64,000 nt of DNA from Candidatus Brennerbacteria bacterium (GTDB taxonomy: Bacteria > Patescibacteriota > Minisyncoccia > UBA6257 > GWB1-50-10): the NCBI GenBank assembly GCA_016183535.1, contig JACPEK010000004.1, positions 141,807 to 205,806 on the forward strand, in the 5' to 3' direction. The notes under the pieces are model-generated. The model had not been told where the DNA came from. It did no database searches and saw only the letters and a list, made by a program, of their open reading frames with translations. Shown in pieces: positions 5,407-48,900 of this stretch (the first letter of the stretch is position 1; each line of letters opens with the position of its first letter). Position numbers and translations under genes: made by a program.

Positions 5407-6097
5407 CGCCGCCGCCGTCGCGCTCTTTGTTTACTGGCGCGGCGCACGCGGTTTCGGCGCGGTTTCTTTTCTCGCGCTCGTTTTACTCCTCTACGCGCTC
5501 GCTTCGAGGTTTTCCGAATGGCGGGGGGTGCGGTATTCTTTTCTCGCGCTCGCGGTAATGGCGGCGGCGTTTTTTGCGCCCGCGGTGGCGGGAGGTACGG
5601 ACGTTTCAGTTTTATTTTCCGGAGCGGCGCGCGCATTCGCGGCGGGCGCGCTCGCTCTGCTTCTTTTCGTTTCCGCCGCGCCGCGCGGCGATCACCGCCG
5701 CATCGCGCGCCGTATCTTCGGCACGGCATTGCCTTTTTTTTCTTCTCTCGCGTTCTTTTTAAATCCCGGATTTCTTTCTTTCACCGGCTTCGTGGCGGCG
5801 CTCGCGCTCCTTGTGCGTGACGAGGCGCGGGAGTGGGAAACGCTCCGCGTGGGATCGGGGAAGCTCGTGAGTGCGGCGGTGGGGCTTGTCGGGGCCGAGG
5901 TCGCCGCCTTTGCGGCTCTTCTCCCTTTAGGACCAACGCGCGCCGCCGTTTTCGTGGCGCTTGTATTTCTCATGGTTCGCGAAGGCGTGGGGGCGGCATA
6001 TCGGGGATGGCTCCGACCCGCGCTGGCGTTTCAGGGGATTGCGGCGTTTTTTGCGTTTTCCGTACTTATTTTCTCTTCGGTTTCATGGACACCATAG
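5348..6097 (+). CDS. Hypothetical Ala-rich polytopic membrane protein (start uncertain; it overlaps the clpB 3' end as drawn)
   Basis: It is the only long ORF in the 5.4-6.1 kb gap and contains several hydrophobic helices. The high-GC context makes a spurious ORF possible. Confidence 0.3.
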   Translation: MVTPLSFRLPSRTAWRSALSAAAVALFVYWRGARGFGAVSFLALVLLLYALASRFSEWRGVRYSFLALAVMAAAFFAPAVAGGTDVSVLFSGAARAFAAGALALLLFVSAAPRGDHRRIARRIFGTALPFFSSLAFFLNPGFLSFTGFVAALALLVRDEAREWETLRVGSGKLVSAAVGLVGAEVAAFAALLPLGPTRAAVFVALVFLMVREGVGAAYRGWLRPALAFQGIAAFFAFSVLIFSSVSWTP

Positions 6098-10097: not shown

Positions 10098-11588
10098 ATG
10101 ATTCCAATGCCACTCCCATTCAAAGTTTCCAAATCCTTCCTGATTATCGCGGTGTTCTTCATCGCGATCGTCACCCCCTCCACGCTCTTCCCCTTCATCG
10201 TGGGGAAATACGTATGGTTTCGTGCGGCGGTGGATGTGGCGCTCCTCGTGTTCGCGCTTGGCTTTTTGTTTCATCCGCATCAATCGGCGGTCATCAGCAT
10301 TCATCAGCGGCTCGTCTCTCTCTATAAAAATCCGCTTGTGATCGCGGTATCAGCTTTCGTTGTGATATTTCTCCTCGCGGGATTTTTCGGTGTGGATCCC
10401 GCGATGTCTTTCTGGTCCAACTTCGAGCGGGGTGAGGGAGGAATACAAATCCTCCACCTCTATGTATTTTTTATGCTCCTCGCGGTGCTGTTCCGAGAGG
10501 AACATGATTGGCAAAAACTTTTTGCGTGCTCACTCGTGGCAGGGCTTTTTATGACGTTCTACGGGCTCGGCGCGGGACTCCGCTACACGGATGCCGAGCT
10601 TGCCACGCGCCACCTTCCCCAGGGCGGCGTCGAGGAGACCTTCACGGGGAAGGGCGGGCCGTGGTACCAGACTTTCAAGAGCTATATCGGCCCCTCTTTC
10701 AAAAGCGACGGATATCGCTTCCAAGGATCCATCGGGAATGCCGCCTACGTCGCCGCCTACGCTATTTTTATGCTCTTCTACGCGGCCTACCTCCTTGCGA
10801 CGAAATACCGCGCGCGGCTCCACTCGTTCGGGGCATTCGTGCTTTTCTTTCTTCTTGCGGTCTTCCTCGCGGTTTTCTGGTTCGCCGCGACTCGCGGCGC
10901 CTTCCTTGGTCTCGTGGGGGCCGTGCTTGCCTTCCTCGGATACTTCATCTACGCCCATAAAAAGTGGCGCCGATGGCTCCTCGCAGGCAGCGCCGTAGTA
11001 GTGATTATGGTCGGGCTTCTCGTGAGTTTTAAAGATGCTCCTTTTGTGAAAGCGATACCCGGCTCGCGTATTTTCGATCTCTCGTTCACCGCGGAGACGT
11101 TTCAGCACCGCACCATCATGTGGGGCATCGCGCTCGAGGGGTGGAAGGAGCGCCCGCTCCTCGGGTGGGGTCCGGAGAACTATATCCAGGTGTTCGACCG
11201 GCGTTTCGATCCCGCCTACTTTGAGCCGACGAAGGGGTTTGGGGCGTGGTTTGACCGGGCACACAGCATCTACTTCGACTATCTCGTGGAAACCGGCGCG
11301 CTCGGCATTGTAAGTTTCCTCGCGATATTCGTAGTGCTCTACCGCTATCTTTTCCGTTCTCTGAAGCGGGAGAACGGAGATGCGCCAACGCAGGAGGGTC
11401 ATCGTGGGAAGGAAACGCCCCCCGCCTTTCGGGCGCTTCCCTCGGCGCTCGCGTTTGCGCTCCCGGTTGCCTACCTCATCCAGGGCATCGTGCTTTTCGA
11501 CGTGCTCCCCATCTACGTGAACGTGTTTCTTTTCCTCGCGTTCATGGTGTATCGGATGGTCGAACGGCCCCTCGCGCCAAAGGCATAG
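10098..11588 (+). CDS. Wzy_C-family polytopic membrane protein (O-antigen ligase WaaL / O-oligosaccharyltransferase PglL / WsaB-like)
   Basis: 496 aa with about 10-12 TM helices. A large loop carries RTIMWGIALEGWKERPLLGWGPENY. A Wzy_C-like motif reads AHSIYFDYLVETGALG. Confidence 0.7.
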   Translation: MIPMPLPFKVSKSFLIIAVFFIAIVTPSTLFPFIVGKYVWFRAAVDVALLVFALGFLFHPHQSAVISIHQRLVSLYKNPLVIAVSAFVVIFLLAGFFGVDPAMSFWSNFERGEGGIQILHLYVFFMLLAVLFREEHDWQKLFACSLVAGLFMTFYGLGAGLRYTDAELATRHLPQGGVEETFTGKGGPWYQTFKSYIGPSFKSDGYRFQGSIGNAAYVAAYAIFMLFYAAYLLATKYRARLHSFGAFVLFFLLAVFLAVFWFAATRGAFLGLVGAVLAFLGYFIYAHKKWRRWLLAGSAVVVIMVGLLVSFKDAPFVKAIPGSRIFDLSFTAETFQHRTIMWGIALEGWKERPLLGWGPENYIQVFDRRFDPAYFEPTKGFGAWFDRAHSIYFDYLVETGALGIVSFLAIFVVLYRYLFRSLKRENGDAPTQEGHRGKETPPAFRALPSALAFALPVAYLIQGIVLFDVLPIYVNVFLFLAFMVYRMVERPLAPKA

Positions 11589-11660
11589 ATCCTAAACACT
11601 AAATCCTAAATAAACTTTAAATTTGACATTTCTTCCCTTGATTAGAAATTTCCACCCCCC

Positions 11661-26466: not shown

Positions 26467-27261
26467 ATGGAGAACTTAGCGGCAATAGCGAAGCAGTGCC
26501 GGCAGAAGGTTCTGGAAATGGCATATGCCGCGAAGGATTCGCACATCGGATGTGCGCTATCTTCCGTGGACGTGTTGGTCCTGCTTTTCTTTCGTGTGAT
26601 GAACGTAAATCCCGAAGACCCGCGTTTTTCCGAAAGGGATCGGTTCATTTTGAGCAAGGGGCACGCGGCAGCGGCACTCTATGCGGTCATGTCCGCGCGC
26701 GGATTTTTCCCCCGGGAAGCGCTCGCAACCTTCGCACAGAACGGAAGTGAACTCGCGAGCCATGTGGAACGGAAGCTTCCTGGCGTGGAGACCAATGGCG
26801 GCTCCGGCGGGCACGGACTTTCGATTGGTGCCGGTATGGCGCTTGCCGCACAGGCGGACGGCGCGAACTATCGCATCTTCATTCTCATGGGAGACGGGGA
26901 ATTGCAGGAAGGGTCTGTGTGGGAAGCGGCAATGTTCGCCTCATCGCGCAACCTTAGCAACCTCACCCTTATCGTGGACCGGAACGGGTTCCAAACGTGG
27001 AACAAGGTGGACGATATCGTCGCCGTAGAATCCCTTGTGGAGAAATTCAGGGCGTTCGGGTGGGATGCGGACGAGGTTAACGGTCACGATTTCGAACGGC
27101 TCGGCAGCGTCATCGAACGAACGGGCGACCGTCCACATGCCATCATTGCACGCACCGTGAAAGGGAAAGGTGTTTCTTTCATGGAAGGTGATGGCGTCTG
27201 GCACTCCAAATCGATGTCGGACGAACACTATCATCGTGCTATGAAGGAGGTGCAATCATGA
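26467..27261 (+). CDS. Transketolase, N-terminal subunit, pair 2 (paralog of 20908-21738)
   Basis: Contains SKGHAAAALYAV, GSGGHGLSIGAGMA and ILMGDGELQEGSVWEA. Confidence 0.9.
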   Translation: MENLAAIAKQCRQKVLEMAYAAKDSHIGCALSSVDVLVLLFFRVMNVNPEDPRFSERDRFILSKGHAAAALYAVMSARGFFPREALATFAQNGSELASHVERKLPGVETNGGSGGHGLSIGAGMALAAQADGANYRIFILMGDGELQEGSVWEAAMFASSRNLSNLTLIVDRNGFQTWNKVDDIVAVESLVEKFRAFGWDADEVNGHDFERLGSVIERTGDRPHAIIARTVKGKGVSFMEGDGVWHSKSMSDEHYHRAMKEVQS

Positions 27262-28166
27262 GAACCGCTTTCGTGGAAACACTCTATGAAGAGGCTCTTC
27301 GTGACCCACGTATCTTCTTCATCACCAGCGATTTTTGGCATGTGAAGGAGGAGGAATTCCGGGCTCTCGGAGCGCGATACCAGAATGGCGGCATGGCCGA
27401 ACAAAACATTATCAGCCTTGCAGTTGGCGCCGCACTCTCAGGGAAGAAGGTTTTTGTGTATTCCATCGTTCCTTTCATCACGCTCCGTTGCATCGAGCAG
27501 GTAAAAGTGGACGTGTGTTCACACGAAGCCGATGTCACCATCGTTGGTGGCGGAGCCGGTTTCACGTACGGAACATGCGGCATAACCCACCTTGCGATCG
27601 AGGACATTGCAATGATGCGCTCACTTCCCCACATGAGAATAATCTCACCTTCAGGATCGGCGGAAGCAAGCGCCCTCTTACGAGAGACCATTCGACTTGG
27701 GGGGCCGACTTACTTTCGCCTCAATATGAGGGAAGATGGTGATCTCACGAGCATGAAGCCCGAAGTAGGAAAGGGAATGATTGTTCGGGAAGGCGTGGAC
27801 GTATGCATCATCGCTACTGGGACCATTCTCGCGGAAGCATTCGGCGTTGCGGACATGCTCGCGGAGAAGGGGATTTCCGTTGAAGTGGTCAACATGCACA
27901 CGATCAAACCTCTCGATGAGGGCCTTGTTCGGGAGCGTGTGCGGTCCCGTCGCGCTGTTTGTACTCTTGAAGAGCACAGCATCATCGGAGGACTTGGTGG
28001 TGCGGTAGCGGAGGTGTTCGCGGAGTCCGGCGGTACGGCCCGATTCAGGCGTTTCGGCATCAAGGATGCATGGCCGACCGTAGTGGGGAGCCAGAAATAT
28101 CTGCGCACCGTGACCGGTATTTCCCAGGAATACCTTGCGGTCGCGATAGAGAAGCTCCTTCAGTAG
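27258..28166 (+). CDS. Transketolase, C-terminal subunit, pair 2
   Basis: Contains GGMAEQNIISLAVGAA and EEHSIIGGLGGAV. Confidence 0.9.
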   Translation: MRTAFVETLYEEALRDPRIFFITSDFWHVKEEEFRALGARYQNGGMAEQNIISLAVGAALSGKKVFVYSIVPFITLRCIEQVKVDVCSHEADVTIVGGGAGFTYGTCGITHLAIEDIAMMRSLPHMRIISPSGSAEASALLRETIRLGGPTYFRLNMREDGDLTSMKPEVGKGMIVREGVDVCIIATGTILAEAFGVADMLAEKGISVEVVNMHTIKPLDEGLVRERVRSRRAVCTLEEHSIIGGLGGAVAEVFAESGGTARFRRFGIKDAWPTVVGSQKYLRTVTGISQEYLAVAIEKLLQ

Positions 28167-28183
28167 TAATATTCATTCGTTCA

Positions 28184-28220
28184 AAAACCTCGGTGTTTCA
28201 CACCCGAGGTTTTTTATTTT
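28184..28220 (+). terminator. Rho-independent terminator after transketolase pair 2
   Basis: Hairpin acctcggtg-tttca-cacccgaggt followed by tttttatttt. Confidence 0.6.
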
Positions 28221-28241
28221 TCACGTCCGCATGCGAGACCA

Positions 28242-28270
28242 TTGACTAAAGCTCGATTTGAGGATATTCT
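28242..28270 (+). promoter_or_regulatory. Sigma70-like promoter TTGACT-17-TATTCT for the SDR gene
   Basis: -35 at 28242-28247. 17-bp spacer. -10 at 28265-28270. RBS aaggaa lies ahead of the ATG at 28300. Confidence 0.4.
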
Positions 28271-28299
28271 ATTCCAAATAAAACTAACAACCTAAAGGA

Positions 28300-29124
28300 A
28301 TGACCATGAAAAACGCAGCGGAAAAGGACCTCGCCGGTCGCGTCGCGCTCATCACGGGAGGCAGTAAGGGCATTGGGAAGACGATAGCCCTGACCCTCGC
28401 GCGGCGAGGCGCCGACATCGTTATCTGCGGCCGAGGCGCATCTGCTCTGGAAACGGCGGCGGAAGAGATACGCGCGTGCGGTTCGACCGTGCATGCCCAC
28501 CCACTTGACGCTACAAAGCTCGAGGGAGTGCGGGATTTTTTTCGCAAGGTTATCGAACCCATTGGACGCCTTGATATTCTCGTGAACAATATCGGGGGAG
28601 TGCGAGAAGTCGCGAAATTTCCCGATCTCACCGATGATGACTGGTACGGAATCTTCGATACCAATCTCATGACCATGGTGCGTGTCACGCGGGAAGCGCT
28701 CAGTTACCTCACAAAATCTCCGTATGCCCGCATCATCAACATTGCGAGCGTGGCAGGGAAACAGCCCGGCGACTGGAACCCTCACTACGGCGCGGTAAAA
28801 GCGGCGATGATCCACCTCTCTAAATCGCTTTCGCGCACCTTGGGACCGGAACACGTGCGGGTAAACGCGATTTGCTCCAGCACCATTAAGGGCGAAGGCG
28901 CGTGGAAGCGGGACGTTGAGAGTAGGATGCGGAGTGGGAACGTCTCGTTTGAGGAAGCGGAGCGCGTACTGGAAGCGGAAGTAAGAGCAAAAGCGCCGCT
29001 CGGAGAGATAGGTACTCCTGCGGATGTCGCGGAACTCGTTGCATTTCTTGCATCGAATCAAGCTTGCTTCATCACCGGCACCTGCATCGAGGTTGATGGT
29101 GGGACGGTTCGATCCATCTTTTAG
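28300..29124 (+). CDS. Short-chain dehydrogenase/reductase (classical SDR, 3-oxoacyl-ACP reductase-like)
   Basis: Contains ALITGGSKGIGK (TGxxxGxG), NNIG and YGAVKAA (YxxxK). Confidence 0.85.
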   Translation: MTMKNAAEKDLAGRVALITGGSKGIGKTIALTLARRGADIVICGRGASALETAAEEIRACGSTVHAHPLDATKLEGVRDFFRKVIEPIGRLDILVNNIGGVREVAKFPDLTDDDWYGIFDTNLMTMVRVTREALSYLTKSPYARIINIASVAGKQPGDWNPHYGAVKAAMIHLSKSLSRTLGPEHVRVNAICSSTIKGEGAWKRDVESRMRSGNVSFEEAERVLEAEVRAKAPLGEIGTPADVAELVAFLASNQACFITGTCIEVDGGTVRSIF

Positions 29125-29139
29125 TATTTTCAATTCGGG

Positions 29140-29176
29140 AAACGCCTCTGTAAAAATCCAGAGGCGTTTTATTTTA
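29140..29176 (+). terminator. Rho-independent terminator after the SDR gene
   Basis: aaacgcctctg-taaaaatc-cagaggcgttt followed by tatttt. Confidence 0.6.
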
Positions 29177-29189
29177 CATTTTGTCTCAA

Positions 29190-29218
29190 TTGACAAAGAG
29201 ACAAAAATTGACATAATC
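29190..29218 (+). promoter_or_regulatory. Sigma70-like promoter TTGACA-17-ATAATC for radical SAM gene 1
   Basis: -35 at 29190-29195 and -10 at 29213-29218. Strong RBS gaaggagg at 29254-29261. ATG at 29268. Confidence 0.45.
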
Positions 29219-29267
29219 ACGCTAGATAATTTAAACAATCACTATAGATCACAGAAGGAGGAACAGG

Positions 29268-31259
29268 ATGAGAACCACAGAGCTTGTGGTAGGGCTGGTG
29301 CAGATCAACAACGGCTACACCGGCCAGTATTATCTCCCGTACTCGGTGGCGATGCTCGAAGCATATGCGAGGAAGAATCTTTCCCGACCGGATCGGTATC
29401 GTTTTCTCGTCCCTATTTATCGCAGGGAGCCGGTCGCGGATGCGGTGGCGAAGTTGCTCGGTGCGGATATCGTAGGGTTCAGCATCTATGTGTGGAACGA
29501 GCAGCTAAGCCTTGCGATCGCGCGAGAACTGAAAAGGCAAAAGCCCGAAGTGCTCGTGGTGTTCGGAGGTCCCCAGGTTCCGGATAACCCGGAGCGTTTC
29601 ATGGAAGAGAACCCCTTCATTGATATCGCGTGTCATGGCGAAGGCGAGAGGGTATTTTGCGCTCTTCTTGAACGATGGGAAGATAAAGAACATATCCCCG
29701 CCATCAGTTATCGGTACAACGGACAGCTCGTGCGGAACCCGCGTTTACCGCGCGTGGAGAACCTAAACGAATTTCCATCCCCATATTTGGACGGGGTTCT
29801 TGATCCTCTCATGCGCGAGAATCCCAACGGGAAATGGAACGCCATTTGGGAAACAAACCGTGGATGCCCCTTCAGTTGCACGTTTTGCGACTGGGGTTCC
29901 GCGGTCAATGCCACGAAGGTGAGGAAATGGGAAGAGGAACGGCTTTTCCGCGAGATAGATTGGTTCGCGGAGCATAAGGTCGATTTCATCTTCGGCGCCG
30001 ATGCCAATTTCGGCATCTTCGAACGTGATATTGGTATCGCAGAGCGTCTTGCGGATTCAAGGCGAAGAACCGGTTTTCCCCGTGCATTCAGCGTTTCAAG
30101 CACCAAGAATGCCACGGAAAGGTCCTTTGCGGCACAGAAAATACTTTCTGACGCCGGATTGAATACTGGTGTAACCGTTTCCATGCAATCCATGGACGTG
30201 GGAACGCTCGTGGCGATCAAGCGGGACAACATTCAGTTGGAGGGCCCAAAGGGTTTCAAGGAACTTCAGCGGAAATTCACGCTTGCAGGAATCCAAACCT
30301 CAACTGATCTCGTCCTGGGATTGCCGGGAGAGACGTACGAATCGTTCGTGCGCGGCGTGAGCGATCTTATCGCGAACGGCCAGCATAATCGCATTCTATT
30401 CTTCAACCTGACCGTCCTTCCGAACGCCGAAATGGGCGATCCGGAATACCAGAAGAAGTACGGGATGGAAACGGTGGAAACGCGCATCATCACGATCCAT
30501 GGCAATCTTCACGATAAGGAAGACGAGGTCGCGGAGTTACAACAGCTGGTGGTCGCGACGAGTACGATGCCGCGAGAGGATTGGGTGCGAGTACGTGCAC
30601 TTTCCTGGATGACTGCGTTTCTGCACTTCGACAAGGTGCTCCAGATTCCGCTTGTGGTCATACATGAGATGACCGGCATTGATTACCGGACGCTCATCGA
30701 GCTATTCTCGGAAGGCTGTTTTGGAAGCGAAGAAGAATTTCCAACCCTTTCCAAGATTCGGAAATTCTTCATTAAGAAGGCCGAGGAGATCCAGGGTGGA
30801 GCGGAGGAGTTCTGTCGTGCGCCCCAGTGGCTTGATCTGTGGTGGCCGACCGATGAGTATATGCTCATCGAACTGGCGACCAGCGGCAATCGCCTCGCGT
30901 TCTATGAGGAAGCCGAACGGGCACTCTCAGTATTTTTGATGGAGAGAGGGATGGGAAGCTGTTGCGGGGTATTGCGCGAAGCGGTCTATCTGAACGAAAG
31001 GATGTTCAAGATGCCGTTTCAGAACGAAAATCGTCGCGTGGAGCTCTCCCATAATCTATGGGAATTCTATTACACTGCGATCTGTGGCAAGCCCATTCCA
31101 TTGGAAGAGAGGGAAACGGTCGTTACCGTTGACTGCACCACCGAACGGTGGGATTCATGGGATGGCTGGTGCCGGTTCGCGGTGTGGTATGCGAGCCATC
31201 CCGGCGCATTCTTCTTTGGTATTACCCCCGACAAGAAGCAGATTGCGGGGCATTGGTAG
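29268..31259 (+). CDS. Cobalamin (B12)-binding-domain radical SAM enzyme (class B rSAM), 663 aa
   Basis: N-terminal B12-binding-like domain with VVFGGPQV. Radical SAM cluster motif CPFSCTFCDW (CxxxCxxC). Long C-terminal extension. Confidence 0.85.
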   Translation: MRTTELVVGLVQINNGYTGQYYLPYSVAMLEAYARKNLSRPDRYRFLVPIYRREPVADAVAKLLGADIVGFSIYVWNEQLSLAIARELKRQKPEVLVVFGGPQVPDNPERFMEENPFIDIACHGEGERVFCALLERWEDKEHIPAISYRYNGQLVRNPRLPRVENLNEFPSPYLDGVLDPLMRENPNGKWNAIWETNRGCPFSCTFCDWGSAVNATKVRKWEEERLFREIDWFAEHKVDFIFGADANFGIFERDIGIAERLADSRRRTGFPRAFSVSSTKNATERSFAAQKILSDAGLNTGVTVSMQSMDVGTLVAIKRDNIQLEGPKGFKELQRKFTLAGIQTSTDLVLGLPGETYESFVRGVSDLIANGQHNRILFFNLTVLPNAEMGDPEYQKKYGMETVETRIITIHGNLHDKEDEVAELQQLVVATSTMPREDWVRVRALSWMTAFLHFDKVLQIPLVVIHEMTGIDYRTLIELFSEGCFGSEEEFPTLSKIRKFFIKKAEEIQGGAEEFCRAPQWLDLWWPTDEYMLIELATSGNRLAFYEEAERALSVFLMERGMGSCCGVLREAVYLNERMFKMPFQNENRRVELSHNLWEFYYTAICGKPIPLEERETVVTVDCTTERWDSWDGWCRFAVWYASHPGAFFFGITPDKKQIAGHW

Positions 31260-31266
31260 AGTTATT

Positions 31267-31304
31267 GATCGACCGGCGCTTGTTGCACCGGTCGATTTTA
31301 TTTT
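31267..31304 (+). terminator. Rho-independent terminator after radical SAM gene 1
   Basis: gatcgaccggcg-cttgttg-caccggtcgat followed by tttatttta. Confidence 0.55.
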
Positions 31305-31314
31305 ATAGGTAATA

Positions 31315-31343
31315 TTGCCAAAATTTGACATATGTGTTATGGT
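31315..31343 (+). promoter_or_regulatory. Sigma70-like promoter TTGCCA-17-TATGGT for radical SAM gene 2
   Basis: -35 at 31315-31320 and -10 at 31338-31343. RBS gagagg. ATG at 31394. Confidence 0.4.
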
Positions 31344-31393
31344 TGCGACAGTTAATTTCAATAACCAAATAATAACCAAAACGAGAGGCAGGA

Positions 31394-33382
31394 ATGGAAA
31401 AGGAGAAGATAGTCATCGGGCTGGTGCAGGTGAACAGCGGATTCTCCGGCCAGCATTACTTCCCGTATTCCGTGGGAGTGCTCCAAGCGTATGCGAAGGA
31501 GCATCTCCCCGGAGTGGAACGTATCGATTTTTTGCTCCCCGTCTACCGCCGCATTCGTGTGGCGGAAGCGGCGGAACAGCTGGAAGGTGCGGACATCGTG
31601 GCATTCAGCACGTATGTCTGGAACATCCGTTTATCACTGGCCATAGCCGCAGAGCTGAAACGGCGCAGACCGAAAACGCTCATCGTGTTCGGTGGGCCGC
31701 AAGTACCGCGTCATGATCGCCCATGGGAAGTCAAAGCGTTCCTCACGAAGAACCCCCAGATTGATGTCGCGATCCATGGCGCAGGCGAAGAGCCGTTCTT
31801 GGGAATTCTCACGCACGGACTCGGGGGAAATTGGGAGCGCATCCCTTCCGCAAGTTTTTTACGTGACACCATGCTTCAACAGAACGCTCCCGCGACCTCG
31901 CTTTCTGATCTTTCCAAAGTCCCTTCCCCATATCTGAGAGGCGTTTTTGATCCGCTCATCGCGGCGAACCCTTCGGAGCGATGGATCGTGCTTTGGGAGA
32001 CCGATCGTAATTGCCCGTTCAGCTGCACGTTTTGTGGCTGGGGACTGCTTGAAAATAAACCCACCGTGTGGCCGATGGACCGTGTCATGAAAGAGGTCGA
32101 CTGGTTCGCGGAACATGAGATTAATTTTGTGTTCTGCGCCAATGCAAACTTTTTTCTGACAAAGCGTGATTTGGAAATTGCGCGCTATGTGGCCGAGACG
32201 AAACTGAAGAGAGGTTTCCCGAGGTTTCTTTCGGTGCAGGACGCAAAGAACTCCGTGGAGCGCGTGTTTGAGGGCAGGATGGTGATGGAGAAAGCGGGAT
32301 TGAACACCGGAGTGGTTATTTCGCTCCAGGCGGTAGATCCTGAAACGCTTCGCATTATTCGACGTAATAACATCAAACTCGACGCGTATCAGGAAGTTCA
32401 ACGGAAGTTCCGCGCGAACGGCATCGAGACCATGACCGACCTCATTCTTCCTTTGGCGGGACAAACGTACCCGAGCTTTGCGAACGGAGTTTCCGAGGTC
32501 ATCGACCACGGCCAGCACAACAGGATTCAGTTCAATTTGTGTTGTTCGGTTCCTGATGCCGAGATGTCCCACCGTGATTATATGGCGCAATACGGTCTTG
32601 AAACGGTAACGACGAAGATGGTCAACATCCATGGCAAGGTCGAAAATGAAGAGGTTCCCGAAACCCAGGACCTCATTATTGCGACTGCGGCCATGCCGAG
32701 AGAGGATTGGGTGCGTGCACGCGCGTTCAGTTGGATGGTGGGACTTCTGCATTTCGACAAACTCCTGCAGATTCCTATTGTGCTCATCCGAAAGCTCGCG
32801 AACGCGAGCTACCGGGAGATCGTAGAATTTTTCTCCGAAGGCCAATTTGGTTCTCGGGAAGCATTTCCCAGCCTGACCAGGATCCGCGAGTTTTTCCTCG
32901 AGAAAGCTCGTGATATCCAGAACGGCGGGACCGAGTACGTTCATTCGAAGGAATGGCTCGACATCTACTGGCCTGCTGACGAGTTCATCTTTATTGAGCT
33001 CGCCATCAAAGGAAAACTCGAGGAGTTCTATGTTGAAGCGGAACTGGCGTTGAAGCGTTTTCTGGAACAGCGGGAAGTTTCCATCCAGGGGAAATTGCTT
33101 CGCGACGCATTTCGTCTCAACCAGAGCTTGCTGAAGCAACCATTCCAAACGCGGGATGTGACCGTGGATCTCACCTACAATGTGTGGGAATTCTACCGTG
33201 GTGTGATGGATGGGAGGGAGGTTCCAATCGAGGAAGGGAAATTCCAGTATCACATTGATCGCACTAGCGTTCGATGGGAGACATGGGAGACCTGGTGCCG
33301 CGAGGTGGTGTGGTTCGGTAACAAGCGCGGCGCATATCTCTACGGGAACATTCCTGTCGAGCAGATCGCCGGACACTACTAA
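31394..33382 (+). CDS. Cobalamin (B12)-binding-domain radical SAM enzyme, paralog of 29268-31259 (662 aa)
   Basis: Contains IVFGGPQV and CPFSCTFCGW (CxxxCxxC). Colinear with gene 1 at roughly 50% identity by eye. Confidence 0.85.
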   Translation: MEKEKIVIGLVQVNSGFSGQHYFPYSVGVLQAYAKEHLPGVERIDFLLPVYRRIRVAEAAEQLEGADIVAFSTYVWNIRLSLAIAAELKRRRPKTLIVFGGPQVPRHDRPWEVKAFLTKNPQIDVAIHGAGEEPFLGILTHGLGGNWERIPSASFLRDTMLQQNAPATSLSDLSKVPSPYLRGVFDPLIAANPSERWIVLWETDRNCPFSCTFCGWGLLENKPTVWPMDRVMKEVDWFAEHEINFVFCANANFFLTKRDLEIARYVAETKLKRGFPRFLSVQDAKNSVERVFEGRMVMEKAGLNTGVVISLQAVDPETLRIIRRNNIKLDAYQEVQRKFRANGIETMTDLILPLAGQTYPSFANGVSEVIDHGQHNRIQFNLCCSVPDAEMSHRDYMAQYGLETVTTKMVNIHGKVENEEVPETQDLIIATAAMPREDWVRARAFSWMVGLLHFDKLLQIPIVLIRKLANASYREIVEFFSEGQFGSREAFPSLTRIREFFLEKARDIQNGGTEYVHSKEWLDIYWPADEFIFIELAIKGKLEEFYVEAELALKRFLEQREVSIQGKLLRDAFRLNQSLLKQPFQTRDVTVDLTYNVWEFYRGVMDGREVPIEEGKFQYHIDRTSVRWETWETWCREVVWFGNKRGAYLYGNIPVEQIAGHY

Positions 33383-37586: not shown

Positions 37587-38351
37587 ATGGAAAATCTTCT
37601 TGTAAAAATATTCGGTCATATCGGTACCGTTTTACACGGGGACGCGGCTGTTTTTGATCGGTGGCGGTGGCTAAGAAAAAACCTCCGTCACGGACAGCTA
37701 CATACCCTGGACGCGGGTTGTGGTTCTGGCGCATTCGCGCTCTATGCGGCGAAGATCGGGAATGAGGTGGTCGGCATCTCTTTTGATGAGAGGAACAACG
37801 GAGTGGCGCAAGCCCGAGCGGGTATCCTAGGGTTTACCGACGCGCGATTCGTCACGGGAGATTTAAGGAGACTCGACGAGTTTGCCTCGTCGCTCGGAGA
37901 ATTCGACCAGATCATCTGTTTTGAAACCATTGAGCATATCCTCGGGGACAGAAAGCTCATTAAAGACCTCTCCGATCTCTTGAGGCCGGGCGGCCGTCTC
38001 CTGCTCACCACGCCTTATAAACACTATTCAAAACGGTTACTGGGCGACGATAAGGTTCCGCTCTCAACCCATGAAGATGGGGGACACGTGAGGTGGGGAT
38101 ATACCCACGAAGAGTTGGAGCGAATATTTAACGGAGCCGGTCTTTCTGTTGTGAGAAAAGATTACGTTTCCGGCATTATCTCCCAACTCAACATCGTTCT
38201 CTACCGGATCCTGCAGTCGAAAATAAATTACAAGATTGCCTGGGGTCTTTCTTTCCCCTTTAGAATATTGGTAGTGTTCGATTCGCTCGTCACGGAGCTC
38301 ATAGGGTTTCCGCATCTGTCGGTCGCGGTGGTGGGGGAGAAAAAAACATGA
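37587..38351 (+). CDS. Class I SAM-dependent methyltransferase
   Basis: Contains TLDAGCGSGAFALYAA and LRPGGRLLLTTP. The ATG at 37587 is preferred over the TTG at 37566. Confidence 0.75.
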   Translation: MENLLVKIFGHIGTVLHGDAAVFDRWRWLRKNLRHGQLHTLDAGCGSGAFALYAAKIGNEVVGISFDERNNGVAQARAGILGFTDARFVTGDLRRLDEFASSLGEFDQIICFETIEHILGDRKLIKDLSDLLRPGGRLLLTTPYKHYSKRLLGDDKVPLSTHEDGGHVRWGYTHEELERIFNGAGLSVVRKDYVSGIISQLNIVLYRILQSKINYKIAWGLSFPFRILVVFDSLVTELIGFPHLSVAVVGEKKT

Positions 38352-39502
38352 AGGTCGCTATATCGGTGGGGGGGAGATTCCACCTTTTCAATCTTGCTCA
38401 GCAGTTGTTGAAACGCGGATTGCTATCGCAACTCATAACTTCCTACCCAAAATTCGAAGTGATGAAATATGAGATTCCCCGCGAGAAAATCGACTCCGTG
38501 ATCGTCAAAGAAATTTTTGAGCGCGGATGGAAAAAACTCCCATCATTTCTACAGAATCTATACAATCCGCAATTTTGCATTCATGAGGTGTTTGATAAAA
38601 TAGCGTTCCGCCACCTTGTTCGCGCCGACATCGTAGTCGGAGGCTCCTCAATGTTTCTCCATACACTACAAAAAGCAAAGAACGCGGGTTCGGTAGCGAT
38701 TGTGGAACATGGTAGTTCGCATATTGTTTTCCAAAACAACATCCTAGAAGAGGAATATAGGCGGTTTAACGTGAAAATACGGCCATTCTATCTGCCTCAC
38801 CCAAAAATAATTGAGAAAGAATTGAAAGAATATGAAGAGGCTGATTACATCTCGATTCCCTCGCAATTTGTGAAGCGTACGTTTTTGGAAAAGGGAATTC
38901 CGGAATCAAAACTCATCCAAGTTCCCTACGGCGTGGACCTCTCGCAGTTCCGGCAGGTTCCAAAAACCGATAAAGTGTTTCGCGTTGTTTTCGCCGGCGG
39001 CATCAGTTTGAGGAAAGGAGTTCCCTATCTTCTCCATGCGTTTGAGGAGCTGAATCTTCCAAATTCAGAACTGCTTCTCGTGGGCGGTATCAACGATGAA
39101 ATGGCACCATTTTTAAAAAAACACGAAGGGAAATTCAAATGGGTGGGGCGGGTACCACAGGCAAATCTTTATAAGTACTACTCACAAAGTTCGGTGTTTG
39201 TGCTCCCGTCCATCGAAGAAGGTCTCGCCATGGTACAACTTCAGGCAATGGCATGCGGGCTCCCCGTCATCGCGACCACGAATACCGGCGCGGAGGACGT
39301 TGTGCGCGATGAGAAAGACGGATTCATTATTCCTATACGTAACGTGGAGGTGTTGAAATCGAAGATCCTTTACTTATATGAACATCCGGAGGAACGGGAA
39401 CTGATGGGGCGTTTTGCGAAAGAACATGTCGCTTCAGGGTTCACATGGAGTGACTATGGAGAAAAGATGATAAATGAATATGGAAAGGTGTTGAAGGAGT
39501 AA
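38348..39502 (+). CDS. Glycosyltransferase family 4
   Basis: Contains PSIEEGLAMVQLQAMACGLPVIATTN. Confidence 0.85.
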   Translation: MKVAISVGGRFHLFNLAQQLLKRGLLSQLITSYPKFEVMKYEIPREKIDSVIVKEIFERGWKKLPSFLQNLYNPQFCIHEVFDKIAFRHLVRADIVVGGSSMFLHTLQKAKNAGSVAIVEHGSSHIVFQNNILEEEYRRFNVKIRPFYLPHPKIIEKELKEYEEADYISIPSQFVKRTFLEKGIPESKLIQVPYGVDLSQFRQVPKTDKVFRVVFAGGISLRKGVPYLLHAFEELNLPNSELLLVGGINDEMAPFLKKHEGKFKWVGRVPQANLYKYYSQSSVFVLPSIEEGLAMVQLQAMACGLPVIATTNTGAEDVVRDEKDGFIIPIRNVEVLKSKILYLYEHPEERELMGRFAKEHVASGFTWSDYGEKMINEYGKVLKE

Positions 39503-39504
39503 AC

Positions 39505-40725
39505 ATGAAGATTCTTCACGTCGCGCCTTCTTATTTTCCCGCTCACCGGCACGGGGGACCCATTGCAAGCGTACATGCGATGAATAAGGCGCTGGTAGCG
39601 GCCGGTGTGGACGTGACGGTCTACACCACGAACATCGACGGGCGCGGCGCGCTGGACGTTCCCCTCGAGAAGGAAACCATCCTTGACGGCGTAAAGATAA
39701 TTTATTTTCCGCTCACGTGGCGCGCATGGGAATATTCGCGGAGCCTACACCGCGCGCTCGAGAAAAATATAGAGAACTTCGATCTGGTGCATCTCACCTC
39801 GGTGTTCCTTTCGGCGTCTACGCTCGGCGCGTACTACGCGAAGAAGTTCGGAGTGCCGTACCTTATCTCGCCCCGCGGGAGCTTGATGAAAGAACCGCTC
39901 GCGATGAAAAGCGCGCTTTTGAAGCGTATCTATCTTGCGTTTATCGAGCGGAGAAACCTTGCCCACGCCGCCGCCATTCATTTCACCGTGAAGGGGGAAG
40001 AGGAAGAATATATTGCGGCGGAACTCCCGCTTCGCAGGTCGTTTGTTATACCAAACAGTTTTGAATTGCCGGAGGAAACGAAAGACGCGGACGGCGAGGC
40101 ATTTCGGAAAAAGCTTGAAGTTTCCTCCGGCGTAAAGATGGTGCTGGCGCTCGGCCGTATCAACTGGAAAAAGGGTTTCGACACGCTGATTCCCGCGTTT
40201 GCGGAAGTGGTGTGTGAGATTCCCCGTGCCGTATTGGTGATCGCGGGGAGTGATGAGGAAGGATACCAAAAGAATGTTCAATTATCAATTATCAATTATC
40301 AATTACCCAACAAGGTTATTTTTACCGGAATGCTCACCGGAGCGGAAAAATGGAGCGCGTTTGCGGGAAGCGACGTATTTGCGCTCCCGTCCTATTCGGA
40401 GAATTTTGGCATGGCGGTGGTAGAGGCGATGGCGATGGGCATTCCGGTCGTAGTGAGTGATAAGGTCGGGATCGCTCCCGAGATTGCGGCCGCGGACGCC
40501 GGCAAAGTGACCGAGAAAGAGCCGCAAACGTTTGCGCGCGCCGTCTTGGAACTTCTCCGAGACGATAAAAAAAGTCGCGCGATGGGCGAACGCGGGCGCG
40601 CGCTCGTTAGAAAACGGTTCGCGCCGGAGAAAGTGGCGCAGGTCTTTATGTCTGCCTATAATGAGCTTGTTCAATCATGGCCTCAAAAATCGACACCGTC
40701 ATCCTTACGAAGGACGAGGAGGTGA
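39505..40725 (+). CDS. Glycosyltransferase family 4
   Basis: Contains PSYSENFGMAVVEAMAMGIPVVVSD. It has an internal heptanucleotide repeat. Confidence 0.85.
   Translation: MKILHVAPSYFPAHRHGGPIASVHAMNKALVAAGVDVTVYTTNIDGRGALDVPLEKETILDGVKIIYFPLTWRAWEYSRSLHRALEKNIENFDLVHLTSVFLSASTLGAYYAKKFGVPYLISPRGSLMKEPLAMKSALLKRIYLAFIERRNLAHAAAIHFTVKGEEEEYIAAELPLRRSFVIPNSFELPEETKDADGEAFRKKLEVSSGVKMVLALGRINWKKGFDTLIPAFAEVVCEIPRAVLVIAGSDEEGYQKNVQLSIINYQLPNKVIFTGMLTGAEKWSAFAGSDVFALPSYSENFGMAVVEAMAMGIPVVVSDKVGIAPEIAAADAGKVTEKEPQTFARAVLELLRDDKKSRAMGERGRALVRKRFAPEKVAQVFMSAYNELVQSWPQKSTPSSLRRTRR
40279..40306 (+). repeat. Tandem heptanucleotide repeat (CAATTAT)x3 plus CAATTAC inside the GT4 coding sequence
   Basis: Read directly: caattatcaattatcaattatcaattac. 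It encodes QLSIINYQL in the inter-domain linker. Confidence 0.85.
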
Positions 40726-41468
40726 ACCTCCCCCACGCGCTCGAGAGCGTAAAGCCGCTCGACGCGAAGGTATGGGTGGTGGATTCTGGCTCAACAGATA
40801 ACACGGAAAAAATAACGAGATTACACGGAGCCGAATTCGTTTCCCACACCGATTATCAAAACCAGGCCCAGCAGTTCAACTGGGCGTTGGATCACCTTCC
40901 CCTCAAAGGGGAGTGGGTCTTGCGGTTGGATGCGGACGAATGGCTCACACCGGAACTCGCGAAGGAAATAATGCAGAAAATCACCTCAATTCAAAGCGGG
41001 GTGAATGGATTCTATATGAAACGCCGCATGTATTTTATGGGACGGTGGATATGTCATGGGGGATATTATCCGACATGGATACTGCGTCTCTTTCGCCGCG
41101 GGAAGGGACGTTCAGAGGAAAGGGAAATGGACGAACATGTCGTACTTTCGGAAGGGTGTGCAGAGCGTTTGAAAAACGATTTCGCGGACGAGAACAGGAA
41201 ATCGCTTCCCGAGTGGCTTGCGAAACATCGGGATTACGCGGTACGGGAAGCACGGGCCGCGCTCCGCGGGCACATTTCGGATACGCGGAAGCTCAAGAAA
41301 TCTTTCTACTATTTCCTGCCGCCCTTTGTCCGTCCTGTTCTTTTTTTCATCTATCGCTATTTCTTCCGTCTCGGTTTTTTGGACGGCATCGCGGGCCTCA
41401 AGTTCCATTTTCTCCAGGGGCTGTGGTACCGTTGGCTTGTCGATAGGGAGATCGTGAAGCGGCGATAA
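40677..41468 (+). CDS. Glycosyltransferase family 2
   Basis: Contains IDTVILTKDEEVNLPHALESV...VWVVDSGSTDNT and RLDADE (DxD). Confidence 0.8.
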   Translation: MASKIDTVILTKDEEVNLPHALESVKPLDAKVWVVDSGSTDNTEKITRLHGAEFVSHTDYQNQAQQFNWALDHLPLKGEWVLRLDADEWLTPELAKEIMQKITSIQSGVNGFYMKRRMYFMGRWICHGGYYPTWILRLFRRGKGRSEEREMDEHVVLSEGCAERLKNDFADENRKSLPEWLAKHRDYAVREARAALRGHISDTRKLKKSFYYFLPPFVRPVLFFIYRYFFRLGFLDGIAGLKFHFLQGLWYRWLVDREIVKRR

Positions 41469-46012: not shown

Positions 46013-47488
46013 TTATATCGCTGACGCTTCGCGCTTTCTCACAATGGACAAAAGTTCCTCGAGGAGCGTTTCTTGAAACAGGTGGAGTGCGATGAAGTAG
46101 ATGAGTGCGCCGGCGGCGATCGTGAAAAGTACGGGGATCCCCAGAAGGTTAAGCCCGAACGTTGCGACGCCCATCATGAGCGCGGCCATCGTGATTCGTG
46201 AGAGGTGCGCTATTACCTTAAACTCAAGGATGCGGCGGGAACGCCACCACATGAATGTGTTGTAGGAAAATTGTGTAACGATGGTTGCCACCGCGGCTCC
46301 CACGATGCCGTAGAGGGGGATAAGGAGCGTGTTCAGCGCGACGTTTATTAAGGACACGCCGAGTACCGCGGGGGCGAGTTTCTTATGCTCATTGTGCGCG
46401 AACACTAAATTTCCGAAGAATGTTCCGGGAAATATGAAGAGTGTGGTGACGAGGAGCGCTTGAAAGACAATCGTGGAAGGCGTGTAGCCGTCTCCGTAGA
46501 GGAGCGCGATGATGGGAGACGCGAGCACCACCCCTCCCACCACAATCGGCATTGCGAGGAGAAAGAGGATGCCGAGCGAGCGTTCGACGAGGATTTTTTC
46601 CTTCTCTTCCTCGCGTTGTCCGATGAGCCGCGAGAGCGCGGGGAAAATACTCGAGGCGATGATGGCCGGAACGGTATAGAGCACCTGAACGATTTTTTGC
46701 GCGGCGGAATAGAACCCCACCTCCGAAGCGGTGCGCCACCACCCCAGCATAATAAGGTCGACGTTCAAGGAAAGCGCGCCGAAGAGCGCGATGAGGGCAA
46801 TAGGAACGGCGGCGCGTAGCACGGGTCGTACGAGTTCGGGGGAGAAAGAACGAACTATTGAGGCAAACTCACGCCGCAGGATGAACATTCCCGCGAGCGC
46901 GCCTACGGCGGCGCTCACCACGTAAGAAGCGGTGAGCGCGCCGGCGGTCGTGTAATACGAAAGGATGACGAATCCCGCCGCGGTGATTGCAACATTAGTG
47001 ACGGCGGTCACGAGCGCCTCGAGCTCCATTTTTTCTTTGGCGCGGAAAAACGCGTTTGAGAATTCGCGGAGCCCGTCGGCGATCGCAAGGATGGCGACGA
47101 AGGGGATCAGCGGCACCGCGGCGTCTATTTTTGAGAAGTGCGGGGCGAGAAAAATGACGGCGAGCGCGGTCAAGATCAGCAACACTATTTTCATCCAGAA
47201 GATAGTGGCGAAGTAGCGGGTTCCCTCTTCGGGTCTCTTCGCGATTTCTCTCGTAAGAATAGAAGTGATTCCCACGTCGGCGAAGATGGTGAAGAATCCG
47301 GCGAGTCCCAGGACGTAGGAAAAAACGCCGTACTCGGACGCGCCGAGCACGCGCGCGGCGTAGATAATGATGGAAGCGCGAATAAGCCGTCCGCCCATCT
47401 GGCTCACCGAGAGCCATATCGTGTTTTTCACGACTGTCTGACGCACGCTCCGATTTTGGAAAAGCAACTCTCTCAATTTCTGCACCAT
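46013..47488 (-). CDS. Polysaccharide flippase (Wzx, MOP superfamily)
   Basis: 491 aa, about 12-14 TM helices. Typical Wzx N-terminus reads VKNTIWLSVSQMGGRLIRASIIIYAAR. Confidence 0.8.
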   Translation of the reverse strand: MVQKLRELLFQNRSVRQTVVKNTIWLSVSQMGGRLIRASIIIYAARVLGASEYGVFSYVLGLAGFFTIFADVGITSILTREIAKRPEEGTRYFATIFWMKIVLLILTALAVIFLAPHFSKIDAAVPLIPFVAILAIADGLREFSNAFFRAKEKMELEALVTAVTNVAITAAGFVILSYYTTAGALTASYVVSAAVGALAGMFILRREFASIVRSFSPELVRPVLRAAVPIALIALFGALSLNVDLIMLGWWRTASEVGFYSAAQKIVQVLYTVPAIIASSIFPALSRLIGQREEEKEKILVERSLGILFLLAMPIVVGGVVLASPIIALLYGDGYTPSTIVFQALLVTTLFIFPGTFFGNLVFAHNEHKKLAPAVLGVSLINVALNTLLIPLYGIVGAAVATIVTQFSYNTFMWWRSRRILEFKVIAHLSRITMAALMMGVATFGLNLLGIPVLFTIAAGALIYFIALHLFQETLLEELLSIVRKREASAI

Positions 47489-47491
47489 GCG

Positions 47492-48805
47492 TTATGAATG
47501 ATTCATGAAAAAATATCGGATCGTTTTGAGGATAATGAGGAGGTCGAGAAAGAGCGAGCGGTTCTTCACGTAGTAGAGGTCGTACTTCAGTTTCTCGTAC
47601 GCCTCCTCGAGCGACGCGGACGGCTGGTAGTTGATCTGCGCCCAGCCGGTCAAGCCCGGTTTCACCACGTGGCGCATTTCGTAGTGAGAAAACCTCTCGT
47701 ATTCCCGCGTGAGCCCCACGTTCTCGGGGCGGGGGCCGGTGAATGAAATGTCGCCGCGGATGATGTTCCAAAGCTGGGGAAATTCGTCCAGATGGGTTGC
47801 GCGGAGGAACGTACCAATCGGCGTGATGCGGGCGTCGTTCTTTTCCGTCCAGAGCGGGCCGCCATTCCCGTTCCTCATCGTGCGGAACTTGTTCAATATG
47901 AACGAGCGGCCGCCTTTCCCCGTGCGTTCCGCACGATAGAGTGCCCCGCCGCGGGAAGTGGCGACAATGAAGATTCCGATGAGGAAGGAAAGCGGGAGCG
48001 TGACCGCAAAAAGTATGGTAGCGAGTGTCACGTCAATGACGCGCTTCACGCGGTCGTACACTGGCCGGCGCGCCGTGATGTTCTCTATAAACCATTCCTC
48101 CGAAAGGTCTTCGAGCGGCACTTTTTCGAACACGGCCTCATAGAATGCGGCGAAGGGAATAACGTTCACTTCGTGCGGGATGATGCGGTAGATTTGGCGC
48201 GCCGCGCGAGCGTCGTGCGCGAGCGCGGGATCAATGACGAGAAGCGCCACGTTCCCGGCGTTTGCGAGCGACTCGAGCATGCTTCCGTTCGCGCCCTTGA
48301 GCGTCTCGTAGTGTTGCGCAACGCGGTACCCAAGGTGGGGTGTGCGGCGCACTTCCTCGATGAGCTCGGTGATGCGCGGGGAAGTTCCCACAAACACGAC
48401 CGGGATCGCGCTTGCTTTGAAACGGACACGAAGGAGCGTTCTCCATGCATAGGAGAGAACGACGGTGAATCCCACGAACATCGCGAGGTTCGTTTTTGGT
48501 GTGAGTTCAAAATAGTCCGGAAAAAGATAGAAAGCGCCCATAGAGACGATGCCGGCGGTGATGGCCGCGACCGCGACCGCGCGGAAGAGTATGAGGGAGG
48601 AGAGGAACGTCCGAAGGTGGTAAAGATCGAAGAGATAGAAAACAAGGAGAAAGACGGTGAATATAAGTAAGAACGGCCCTTTGTGGCCGGCGAATGCGAA
48701 AGAGAACCCGCTTGTTCCATAACGGACGAGAAGCGCTCCCGCGAGCGCCGCATAGAGAATTACGATGTCTCCCGCGAAGAGAAGCCCCTTTTTCCAGCCG
48801 GACAT
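47492..48805 (-). CDS. Initiating polyprenyl-phosphate hexose-1-phosphate transferase (WbaP/CpsE/WsaP-like bacterial sugar transferase)
   Basis: N-terminal TM helices. The C-terminal catalytic domain reads KRVIDVTLA...RGGALYRAERTGKGGRSFILNKFRTM...DEFPQLWNIIRGDISFTGPRP. Confidence 0.85.
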   Translation of the reverse strand: MSGWKKGLLFAGDIVILYAALAGALLVRYGTSGFSFAFAGHKGPFLLIFTVFLLVFYLFDLYHLRTFLSSLILFRAVAVAAITAGIVSMGAFYLFPDYFELTPKTNLAMFVGFTVVLSYAWRTLLRVRFKASAIPVVFVGTSPRITELIEEVRRTPHLGYRVAQHYETLKGANGSMLESLANAGNVALLVIDPALAHDARAARQIYRIIPHEVNVIPFAAFYEAVFEKVPLEDLSEEWFIENITARRPVYDRVKRVIDVTLATILFAVTLPLSFLIGIFIVATSRGGALYRAERTGKGGRSFILNKFRTMRNGNGGPLWTEKNDARITPIGTFLRATHLDEFPQLWNIIRGDISFTGPRPENVGLTREYERFSHYEMRHVVKPGLTGWAQINYQPSASLEEAYEKLKYDLYYVKNRSLFLDLLIILKTIRYFFMNHS

Positions 48806-48900
48806 AATTAATAGGGTATAGGGTTTAGAGGCTAGGGTCTAGACCGGAAAGTATAAACAGTGGGGTTGACTTTCATGCGTCGGAATCTACGATAGTTCGT

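Follow-up and report, generated by a model that had tools for sequence, protein, structure and literature searches.

A maintained heptanucleotide array within a GT4 glycosyltransferase gene of a Candidatus Brennerbacteria bacterium: a candidate phase-variable locus

Classical contingency loci in the glycosyltransferase genes for lipooligosaccharide and capsule carry tetranucleotide repeats in Haemophilus and poly-G tracts in Campylobacter and Neisseria. Heptanucleotide phase variation of a glycosyltransferase is also established, in Neisseria pglE, where the unit CAAACAC occurs in 5 to 34 copies, their number varying between isolates (PMC5953494, PMC7157529). Heptamers are likewise found in Haemophilus influenzae, as (AATTTTG)14 in hmw1A, as (AACAACC)n in a TonB-dependent receptor gene and as the promoter repeats of hmw1A and hmw2A (PMC2651432). 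Here, we analyze a perfect array of four TCAATTA units lying within a gene for a glycosyltransferase of family GT4 in an uncultivated bacterium of the Patescibacteria, assigned to Candidatus Brennerbacteria (assembly GCA_016183535.1, contig JACPEK010000004.1, positions 141,807 to 205,806 of the forward strand; these 64,000 nucleotides are called the window, and coordinates refer to it unless another contig is named). The array is a genuine, maintained intragenic microsatellite. The gene is best regarded as a candidate for phase variation and not as an established phase-variable gene: the sequence features of such genes are present, while length polymorphism was sought and not seen.

Direct reading of positions 40278 to 40305, on the forward strand, gives TCAATTA four times with zero mismatches, preceded by AATGT and followed by CCC, and Tandem Repeats Finder, applied to the window, reports the same interval (period 7, 4.0 copies, 100% matches). 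An earlier note, made from the sequence alone, had described three caattat units followed by caattac, in frame, at 40279-40306; the array is the same, read one base further along, and the TCAATTA register is the perfect one. The array encodes residues 258-267, (V)QLSIINYQL. A degenerate leading unit, AATGTTC (40273-40279, forward strand), matches AATTATC at 5 of 7 positions in that register and shares its last two bases with the array start; this flank is conserved in three orthologues, L184 to L186. The window has no other run with a perfect period of 7 that reaches 17 nt, nor does it contain further copies of even two TCAATTA units with up to 2 mismatches, 0.25 being expected. With 21 consecutive lag-7 matches in 64 kb, chance is excluded. 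So is an assembly artefact, because the array recurs in both L001 and L002, independent Logan assemblies of this strain (identical to the window over 11.2 and 4.2 kb), and is encoded in P0001, an NCBI protein from a metagenome-assembled genome (MAG) annotated as Candidatus Brennerbacteria. The surroundings had been taken to be AT-rich, but the enclosing gene has a GC content of 54%, against 14% for the array.

The enclosing open reading frame (ORF; 39505-40725, forward strand, 406 amino acids) is uninterrupted across the array, and its assignment to GT4, a retaining-type family with the GT-B fold, which the earlier note had proposed, is borne out. Pfam places Glyco_trans_4_4 at residues 17-184 and Glycos_transf_1 at residues 198-365 (4e-38), with bit scores of 131 for PF00534 (cut-off 26.4), 71 for PF13579 and 46 for PF13439, all exceeding the curated thresholds. 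Sequence matches in the PDB are GT4 enzymes, including BshA, PimA, PimB', MshA and WaaG, the best with an E value of 2.5e-19; no characterised close relative of the protein was found. The AlphaFold model (mean pLDDT 86) features two Rossmann-like beta-alpha-beta domains, with a strand at residues 243-247, a helix at 255-264 and a strand at 271-275 around the array. According to this model the array forms most of the helix following the second strand of the C-terminal Rossmann domain (helix encoded by 40267-40296, forward strand), plus the next loop. This differs from the location in the interdomain linker suggested earlier: the linker spans approximately residues 181-205, away from the array.

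The expected truncation of the transferase upon gain or loss of one unit was reproduced in silico. A 3-unit allele would end at a TAG (40421-40423) with a product of 303 amino acids, and a 5-unit allele at a TGA (40458-40460) with one of 320, all on the forward strand. Neither product contains, in frame, the EX7E motif (ENFGMAVVE, residues 299-307, 40399-40425, forward strand; E299 is invariant and E307 nearly invariant in the alignment) or anything downstream of it, and both would miss the nucleotide-sugar-binding half of the enzyme. The frame is kept by 1, 4 or 7 units, but 1 or 7 alter the helix by 7 residues, and frame and helix length are both preserved only at 4 units.

The nucleotides of the array are conserved beyond the peptide. 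TTA accounts for 5% of the leucine codons and TCA for 9% of the serine codons in the long ORFs of the window, and with this codon usage the probability of finding the array's codons, given its peptide, is about 10^-6.6. Orthologues L184 and L185, whose products are 64-65% identical to the window protein, have a GC content of 53-55% and a third-position identity to the window gene of 0.44-0.45; all 28 nucleotides of the array are shared exactly. In orthologue L186, about 55% identical, 27 of the 28 are the same. At positions with the same amino acid, codons agree in 42-54% of cases outside the array and in 10 of 10 or 9 of 9 inside it (P between 4e-4 and 2e-3 per pair). The array is not a by-product of the encoded peptide, its nucleotide purity far exceeding what the peptide needs. 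Comparison of the window peptide QLSIINYQL with the common QLLITNYQL points in the same direction: they differ by five nucleotide changes in three codons, all five of which perfect the repeat. Elsewhere in the gene (about 39850-39990, the SPRGSLMKEPL region), the window and L185 share perfectly identical stretches of 65 and 36 nt, with the overall third-position identity being 0.45, which suggests either strong constraint or a recombination patch.

From the gene family, 61 species-level homologues were fetched, all from MAGs and most labelled Patescibacteria; site statistics refer to 58 loci. In 22 of these, the best period-7 window of the whole gene falls at the array site, which makes up about 6% of the gene; the same statistic for periods 5, 6, 8 and 9 selects the site in 3 to 6 loci. 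Period-7 self-identity of at least 0.8 at the site is found in ten loci, while no locus reaches it with the other periods. A count of perfect runs in the flanking DNA, 385 kb in total, gives ten for period 7 (19 nt or longer), of which seven fall at the GT4 array site; runs of comparable relative length number 2, 0, 0, 0 and 0 for periods 5, 6, 8, 9 and 10.

The repeated unit varies by lineage. TCAATTA is found in the window, L184, L185 and L186; TAATTAC-type units in L190 and L003; AAATCTC (class C) in L024, L057, L006 and L038; AATTTCT in L004 and L049; AATTGAA in L013 and L009; and AAATTAC in L022. All these arrays share a homologous position, with the AAT core in the same codon phase where read by eye, and the near-perfect ones have one common in-frame length, except those of L013 and L009 (AATTGAA) and of L022, which are two residues longer. 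The site is conserved as a DNA repeat with lineage-specific units, not as a protein motif. The earlier note had considered that presence of the repeat in all homologues as a conserved motif would speak against a switch. This is partly the case: many homologues do share a heptamer array of the same in-frame length, but the units differ between lineages. Conservation of this kind argues for unit turnover, not against it.

How units may be replaced is illustrated by two pairs of close relatives. L184 and L190 are 87% identical; the former reads CAATTAT three times followed by CAATTAC, the latter AAATTAC, TAATTAC, TAATTAC, CAATTAC, and the unit positions that differ do so in parallel across units, which indicates homogenisation. 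L003 and L024 are 85% identical. Outside a patch of about 48 nt at the site their DNA is identical to about the same degree; inside it, L003 has an array of the AATTAC class (class A) and L024 has (AAATCTC)3; this class C array is shared by L024 with L057, despite an overall identity of 52%. Homogenisation could proceed by slippage cycles within the array, by short-patch conversion between genes, or by both. The neighbor-joining tree of the family is too crude for counting independent homogenisation events. L191 and L193, both close relatives, carry a decayed array; in known phasomes, homologues that are not phase-variable likewise show a decayed repeat (PMC5953494). Class B arrays (ELKIENCKLKIG) might be described as an extra unit with a compensating indel; we do not claim this, the alignment being ambiguous.

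Other sequences also occupy the site, as in-frame inserts. In L042 it holds an 18-nt GC-rich perfect palindrome, CCTGCCTGCGCAGGCAGG, set in a degenerate heptamer array, and in L048 two imperfect copies of a motif of the GGACGTCCGACGTCC type, encoding a repeated 'RTSDV' peptide; two or three copies of a similar 'RTSDV' motif are found within in-frame inserts of proteins P0040, P0068, P0072, P0095 and P0126. L031 has in-frame repeats of GTCCGCGT, and L017 and L028 carry AAATCAG three times with a spacing of 9-10 nt. The GT4 array site is a hot spot for insertions, perhaps those of small palindromic elements.

The reading that we favour, although with slightly less than even confidence, is that of a maintained, slippage-prone microsatellite which switches one glycosylation step ON and OFF at a low rate. 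Replication slippage, by loss and gain of units, would homogenise the array; four units would be the ON state and three or five units the OFF state, making a reversible slipped-strand switch for the addition of one sugar; OFF states would arise in populations, and switching would be selected. Several features expected of phase-variable genes are found here. The array is a perfect tandem, within an ORF, of a unit whose length is not divisible by 3; its purity is above neutral expectation, as judged from codon agreement and from the homogenised unit variants; in silico, a change of one unit in either direction abolishes the product and the opposite change restores it; and its four copies are above the PhasomeIt cut-off of at least 3 for units of 6-9 nt (PMC5953494). 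Since the ON length is set by the structure of the protein, the array cannot grow, and a low switching rate is expected in comparison with classical contingency loci.

A substantial set of observations weighs against such a switch. Copy-number variants or frameshifted alleles produced by slippage were found in none of the assemblies nor among about 190 homologues. The three records of the strain (L001, L002 and the MAG) have identical arrays with no length difference, and no truncated near-identical protein is present in the protein database, where the 90% cluster of P0001 has no other member. The three other lineages with TCAATTA units all have four of them, one with a point substitution. The frame is split at the array site in 0 of the 61 species-level loci, and members of the 90% clusters show no 7-amino-acid indels, with one point substitution at the site and length differences confined to the termini. 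A query with the N-terminal part of the protein only returned six short proteins, none a one-unit slip, four of which look like contig-end partials, being on short contigs or labelled 'partial'. Counting units across relatives, the check proposed by the earlier note, thus revealed neither length variation nor an OFF allele, at the level of consensus assemblies, in which minority alleles are invisible and lineages with perfect arrays are few. The near-perfect arrays seen, about 11, all have the ON length. In contrast, classical contingency genes are frequently OFF in assemblies. Four units, moreover, are fewer than the 5-34 copies of pglE, and slippage may be rare; the mosaic of array types could be attributed to short-patch recombination rather than to slippage.

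Some sequences resembling slip alleles were considered and rejected. The frameshift of P0122 lies elsewhere in the gene. P0124, encoded by L188, ends at the first array unit and continues into unrelated DNA: in this contig (CAYHSH010000068.1), the GT4 homologue is broken at 1885-1905, reading AATGTCCAATTAT up to the break and TTTGAGAGG after it, followed by an unrelated gene. Either a rearrangement broke at the repeat or the 2.1-kb contig is chimeric. Neither of the two fragments returned by an 80-residue query centred on the array is a slip allele. P0170 (97 amino acids, on a 22.5-kb ENA contig) has a frameshift upstream of the array, near a lysine-rich (A-rich) stretch; its peptide ends in ISNY and, judging from this peptide, the stop lies in the degenerate array region, in an alternative frame. 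We consider it a pseudogene or the outcome of a sequencing error in a homopolymer rather than a unit slip. Apparent insertions in L020, L033, L037, L043, L047 and L050 turned out to be the adjacent GT4 paralogue, and an apparent deletion in L059 (residues 246-311) coincides with a run of 100 N at 3740-3840, covering the array region, that is, a scaffold gap or masking.

Among the alternatives to a selected switch, a non-adaptive microsatellite in a permissive helix is a possible, if somewhat unlikely, explanation. The array would be a mutational by-product of slippage or conversion, and slipped alleles would be nulls, purged by selection. The encoded peptide would fit the amphipathic helix, hence its toleration, and unrelated inserts at the site in other lineages suggest that it is structurally permissive; (TCAATTA)n is also tolerated in frame in unrelated genes. 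This explanation agrees with the failure to find an OFF allele among arrays all of ON length, with the decay seen in L191 and L193, and with the abundance of tandem heptamers, of unknown function, across prokaryotes (PMC6344855). However, a neutral array is expected to decay at the synonymous rate, yet this one is nucleotide-perfect in three lineages near synonymous saturation, an AT island persisting against the codon bias of genes with 53-55% GC. Furthermore, if purity were due to slippage alone, OFF intermediates at appreciable frequency would be needed.

Improbable, but compatible with both the switch and the non-adaptive explanation, is a short-patch recombination cassette, in which the array and its flanks are swapped among family members or paralogues by gene conversion, the repeats supplying the homology. 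Array type does depart from the gene phylogeny, as in the sharp patch of about 48 nt between L003 and L024 and in the class C array common to L024 and L057, and the TCAATTA array recurs in L186, which the tree places well away from the window. The break in contig L188 coincides exactly with the start of the array, and (AAATCTC)3 encodes the same peptide in a carbamoyltransferase gene of L012. On the other hand, the window contains no donor copy, 28 nt are a marginal homology for recombination, and the exchange of segments does not in itself say why these are always tandem heptamers.

It is still less probable that the array is a sequence-specific nucleic acid signal within the coding sequence (CDS), for instance a binding site for a protein, a point of translational pausing or a promoter, internal or antisense. 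Conservation of nucleotides beyond the peptide, the AT island in a GC-richer gene and the rarity of the array codons in the window genome would suit a signal of this type, as would a weak sigma-70-like match on the minus strand, with the -35 hexamer TTGATA inside the array; with 9 of 12 positions matching, however, this proves nothing, and on the sense strand no sigma-70-like promoter match was found at the array, so that an internal sense promoter was rejected. The units AAATCTC, AATTGAA and AATTTCT found elsewhere at the site leave no common motif, and in AT-rich relatives the array codons are not rare. A hairpin or structured RNA was likewise discarded, as the predicted minimum free energy of the array, -0.6 kcal/mol, is weaker than that of shuffled sequences and an Rfam search of the array gave no match. 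The coincidental low-complexity stretch contemplated by the earlier note, for which nothing speaks but the short length of the array, can practically be dismissed in view of the uniqueness of this perfect period-7 run in the window, the period-7 enrichment at the site, the improbability of the codons and their conservation inside the array.

The genes surrounding the array point to surface-glycan biosynthesis, as anticipated in the earlier note. The GT4 gene is preceded by a GT4 paralogue with no array (38348-39502, forward strand; ORF and Pfam evidence) and followed by a GT2 gene (40677-41468, forward strand; ORF and Pfam evidence), which overlaps its 3' end by 49 nt (40677-40725). The same overlap recurs in L187, a 64%-identical relative, at 4173-4221; its conservation suggests coupled expression, and in an OFF state the downstream GT2 gene could suffer from polarity. 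By family assignment, the minus strand encodes a Wzx-type polysaccharide flippase (Polysacc_synt, 46013-47488) and a priming sugar transferase (Bac_transf, 47492-48805). Besides the flippase and the priming transferase, the neighbouring genes comprise a second GT4, two GT2s, methyltransferases and nucleotide-sugar enzymes, and in relatives the GT4 gene adjoins Wzy or O-antigen-polymerase-like genes. Because of these neighbouring gene families, the locus is probably a surface-glycan biosynthesis cluster. The cluster region also includes, at 26467-33382, genes for a GHMP kinase, for two large B12-binding radical-SAM enzymes and for a split transketolase, whose N- and C-terminal halves are encoded by different ORFs, a combination that hints at an unusual modified sugar.

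Arrays of the same heptamer are common elsewhere. A metagenome scan with CAATTATCAATTATCAATTA recovered at least 120 loci with (TCAATTA)n arrays of 20-116 nt (contigs L064-L183), none in the GT4 family among the matches listed. In unrelated genes, arrays of 21-34 nt are translated in frame into QLSIINYQL-like peptides: in a Mur-ligase/FolC-type enzyme, between its M and C domains (L172, 5950-7368, minus strand), a 3-dehydroquinate synthase (L152, 4385-5656, plus strand), a GT2 (L143, 566-1642, plus strand), an amine oxidase (L069, 3-1217, plus strand), a GT1-like protein (L165) and a Mu-type portal/MuF protein (L074, 3461-6160, minus strand). Coding DNA permits only the TCAATTA orientation, because the reverse, TAATTGA, has stops in every frame. 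Many other metagenomic arrays sit just upstream of genes.

Other heptamers were noticed in the course of the analysis. In L012, at 6780-6860, three AAATCTC units lie within a carbamoyltransferase-like ORF (NodU/CmcH-type) and encode ENLKSQIS, peptide and unit being those of the GT4 class C arrays; a GC-rich palindromic sequence follows directly (CCGCCTGCG...GGCGGGCAGGC). In L030, a gap of 6 nt separates the end of a perfect array of four AACCCTA units (5755-5782) from the following ATG, that of a carbamoyltransferase-like gene, and in the window the end of a degenerate one (GACCCTA GCCTCTA AACCCTA TACCCTA, 48812-48842, minus strand) is likewise 6 nt ahead of the ATG of the Bac_transf gene; both genes feature similar spacers (TTAATT/TTTATT) and no obvious Shine-Dalgarno sequence. 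Degenerate intergenic (CCTAAAY)n heptamers are present in the window at 2532-2563, 2598-2630, 2665-2678, 11584-11611 and 48816-48829, a ClpB-like gene (2707-5406) being among those with such heptamers upstream. Allowing up to 2 mismatches, CCTAAAYCCTAAAY matches the window 8 times, 0.87 being expected.

A bolder version of the switch may be formulated, which we consider unlikely. A helix of the GT4 family would long have hosted a self-renewing array, whose units drift and re-homogenise by lineage but always number four. Lodged in a folded domain and conserved across orthologues about 50-65% identical, it would be a contingency switch in minimal form, and the first such switch on record for the Candidate Phyla Radiation. 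In its wider form, (TCAATTA)n arrays would be portable modules, seeding in frame into permissive segments of unrelated genes, such as those for the Mur ligase, 3-dehydroquinate (DHQ) synthase, GT2 and phage portal protein. If true, the portable modules would offer a tractable comparative system for the abundance of heptamers in prokaryotes.

Patescibacteria, or the Candidate Phyla Radiation, are tiny, mostly episymbiotic organisms, in which the cell surface mediates contact with host and phage. No report of a phase-variable gene in this group was found in the literature searched. A slipped-strand switch in a glycan transferase, if real, would give a reduced genome a cheap means of surface diversification. 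Independently of function, it is unusual for a DNA repeat that encodes a helix to be retained as such throughout a gene family while its units change, and the locus bears on the question of what makes 7-base tandem repeats so frequent in prokaryotes (PMC6344855). In our opinion this comparative pattern is more interesting than the switch itself.

In terms of function, pglE would be the closest known system. In both cases a 7-nt repeat lies within the gene of a glycosyltransferase that adds, or here would add, one sugar to a surface glycan, and the frame is shifted by adding or removing one unit. For pglE there is experimental proof of switching, whereas here four TCAATTA copies are present, variation was not observed and the length is fixed by a structured helix. 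The H. influenzae repeats are also simple heptamer repeats, some within ORFs, with frameshifts ascribed to changes in the number of units (PMC2651432). They differ in having 1-38 copies, thus reaching higher numbers, in varying between strains and in belonging to adhesin and receptor genes, not to GT4 genes; positional conservation across distant orthologues has not been described for them. Tandem heptamers of prokaryotes also include the STRR repeats of cyanobacteria and those of Xanthomonas, which have in common with the array a 7-nt tandem unit. The SPADE survey ranked tandem heptamers first in abundance among the short repeats of prokaryotic intergenic DNA, their function being unknown (PMC6344855); in the 385 kb of Patescibacteria DNA analyzed here, too, heptamers were the only long perfect repeats of short period. 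Such repeats are mostly intergenic; the array described here is located in the middle of a CDS, within a conserved enzyme fold, and is translated. With classical contingency loci it would share the stochastic frameshift toggling one glycan-modifying enzyme. The tracts of those loci, however, are long, usually 5'-proximal, hypervariable between strains and often absent from the orthologues of other species, while this array is short, placed mid-gene in a structured helix, invariant in length and kept in position across orthologues about 50-65% identical.

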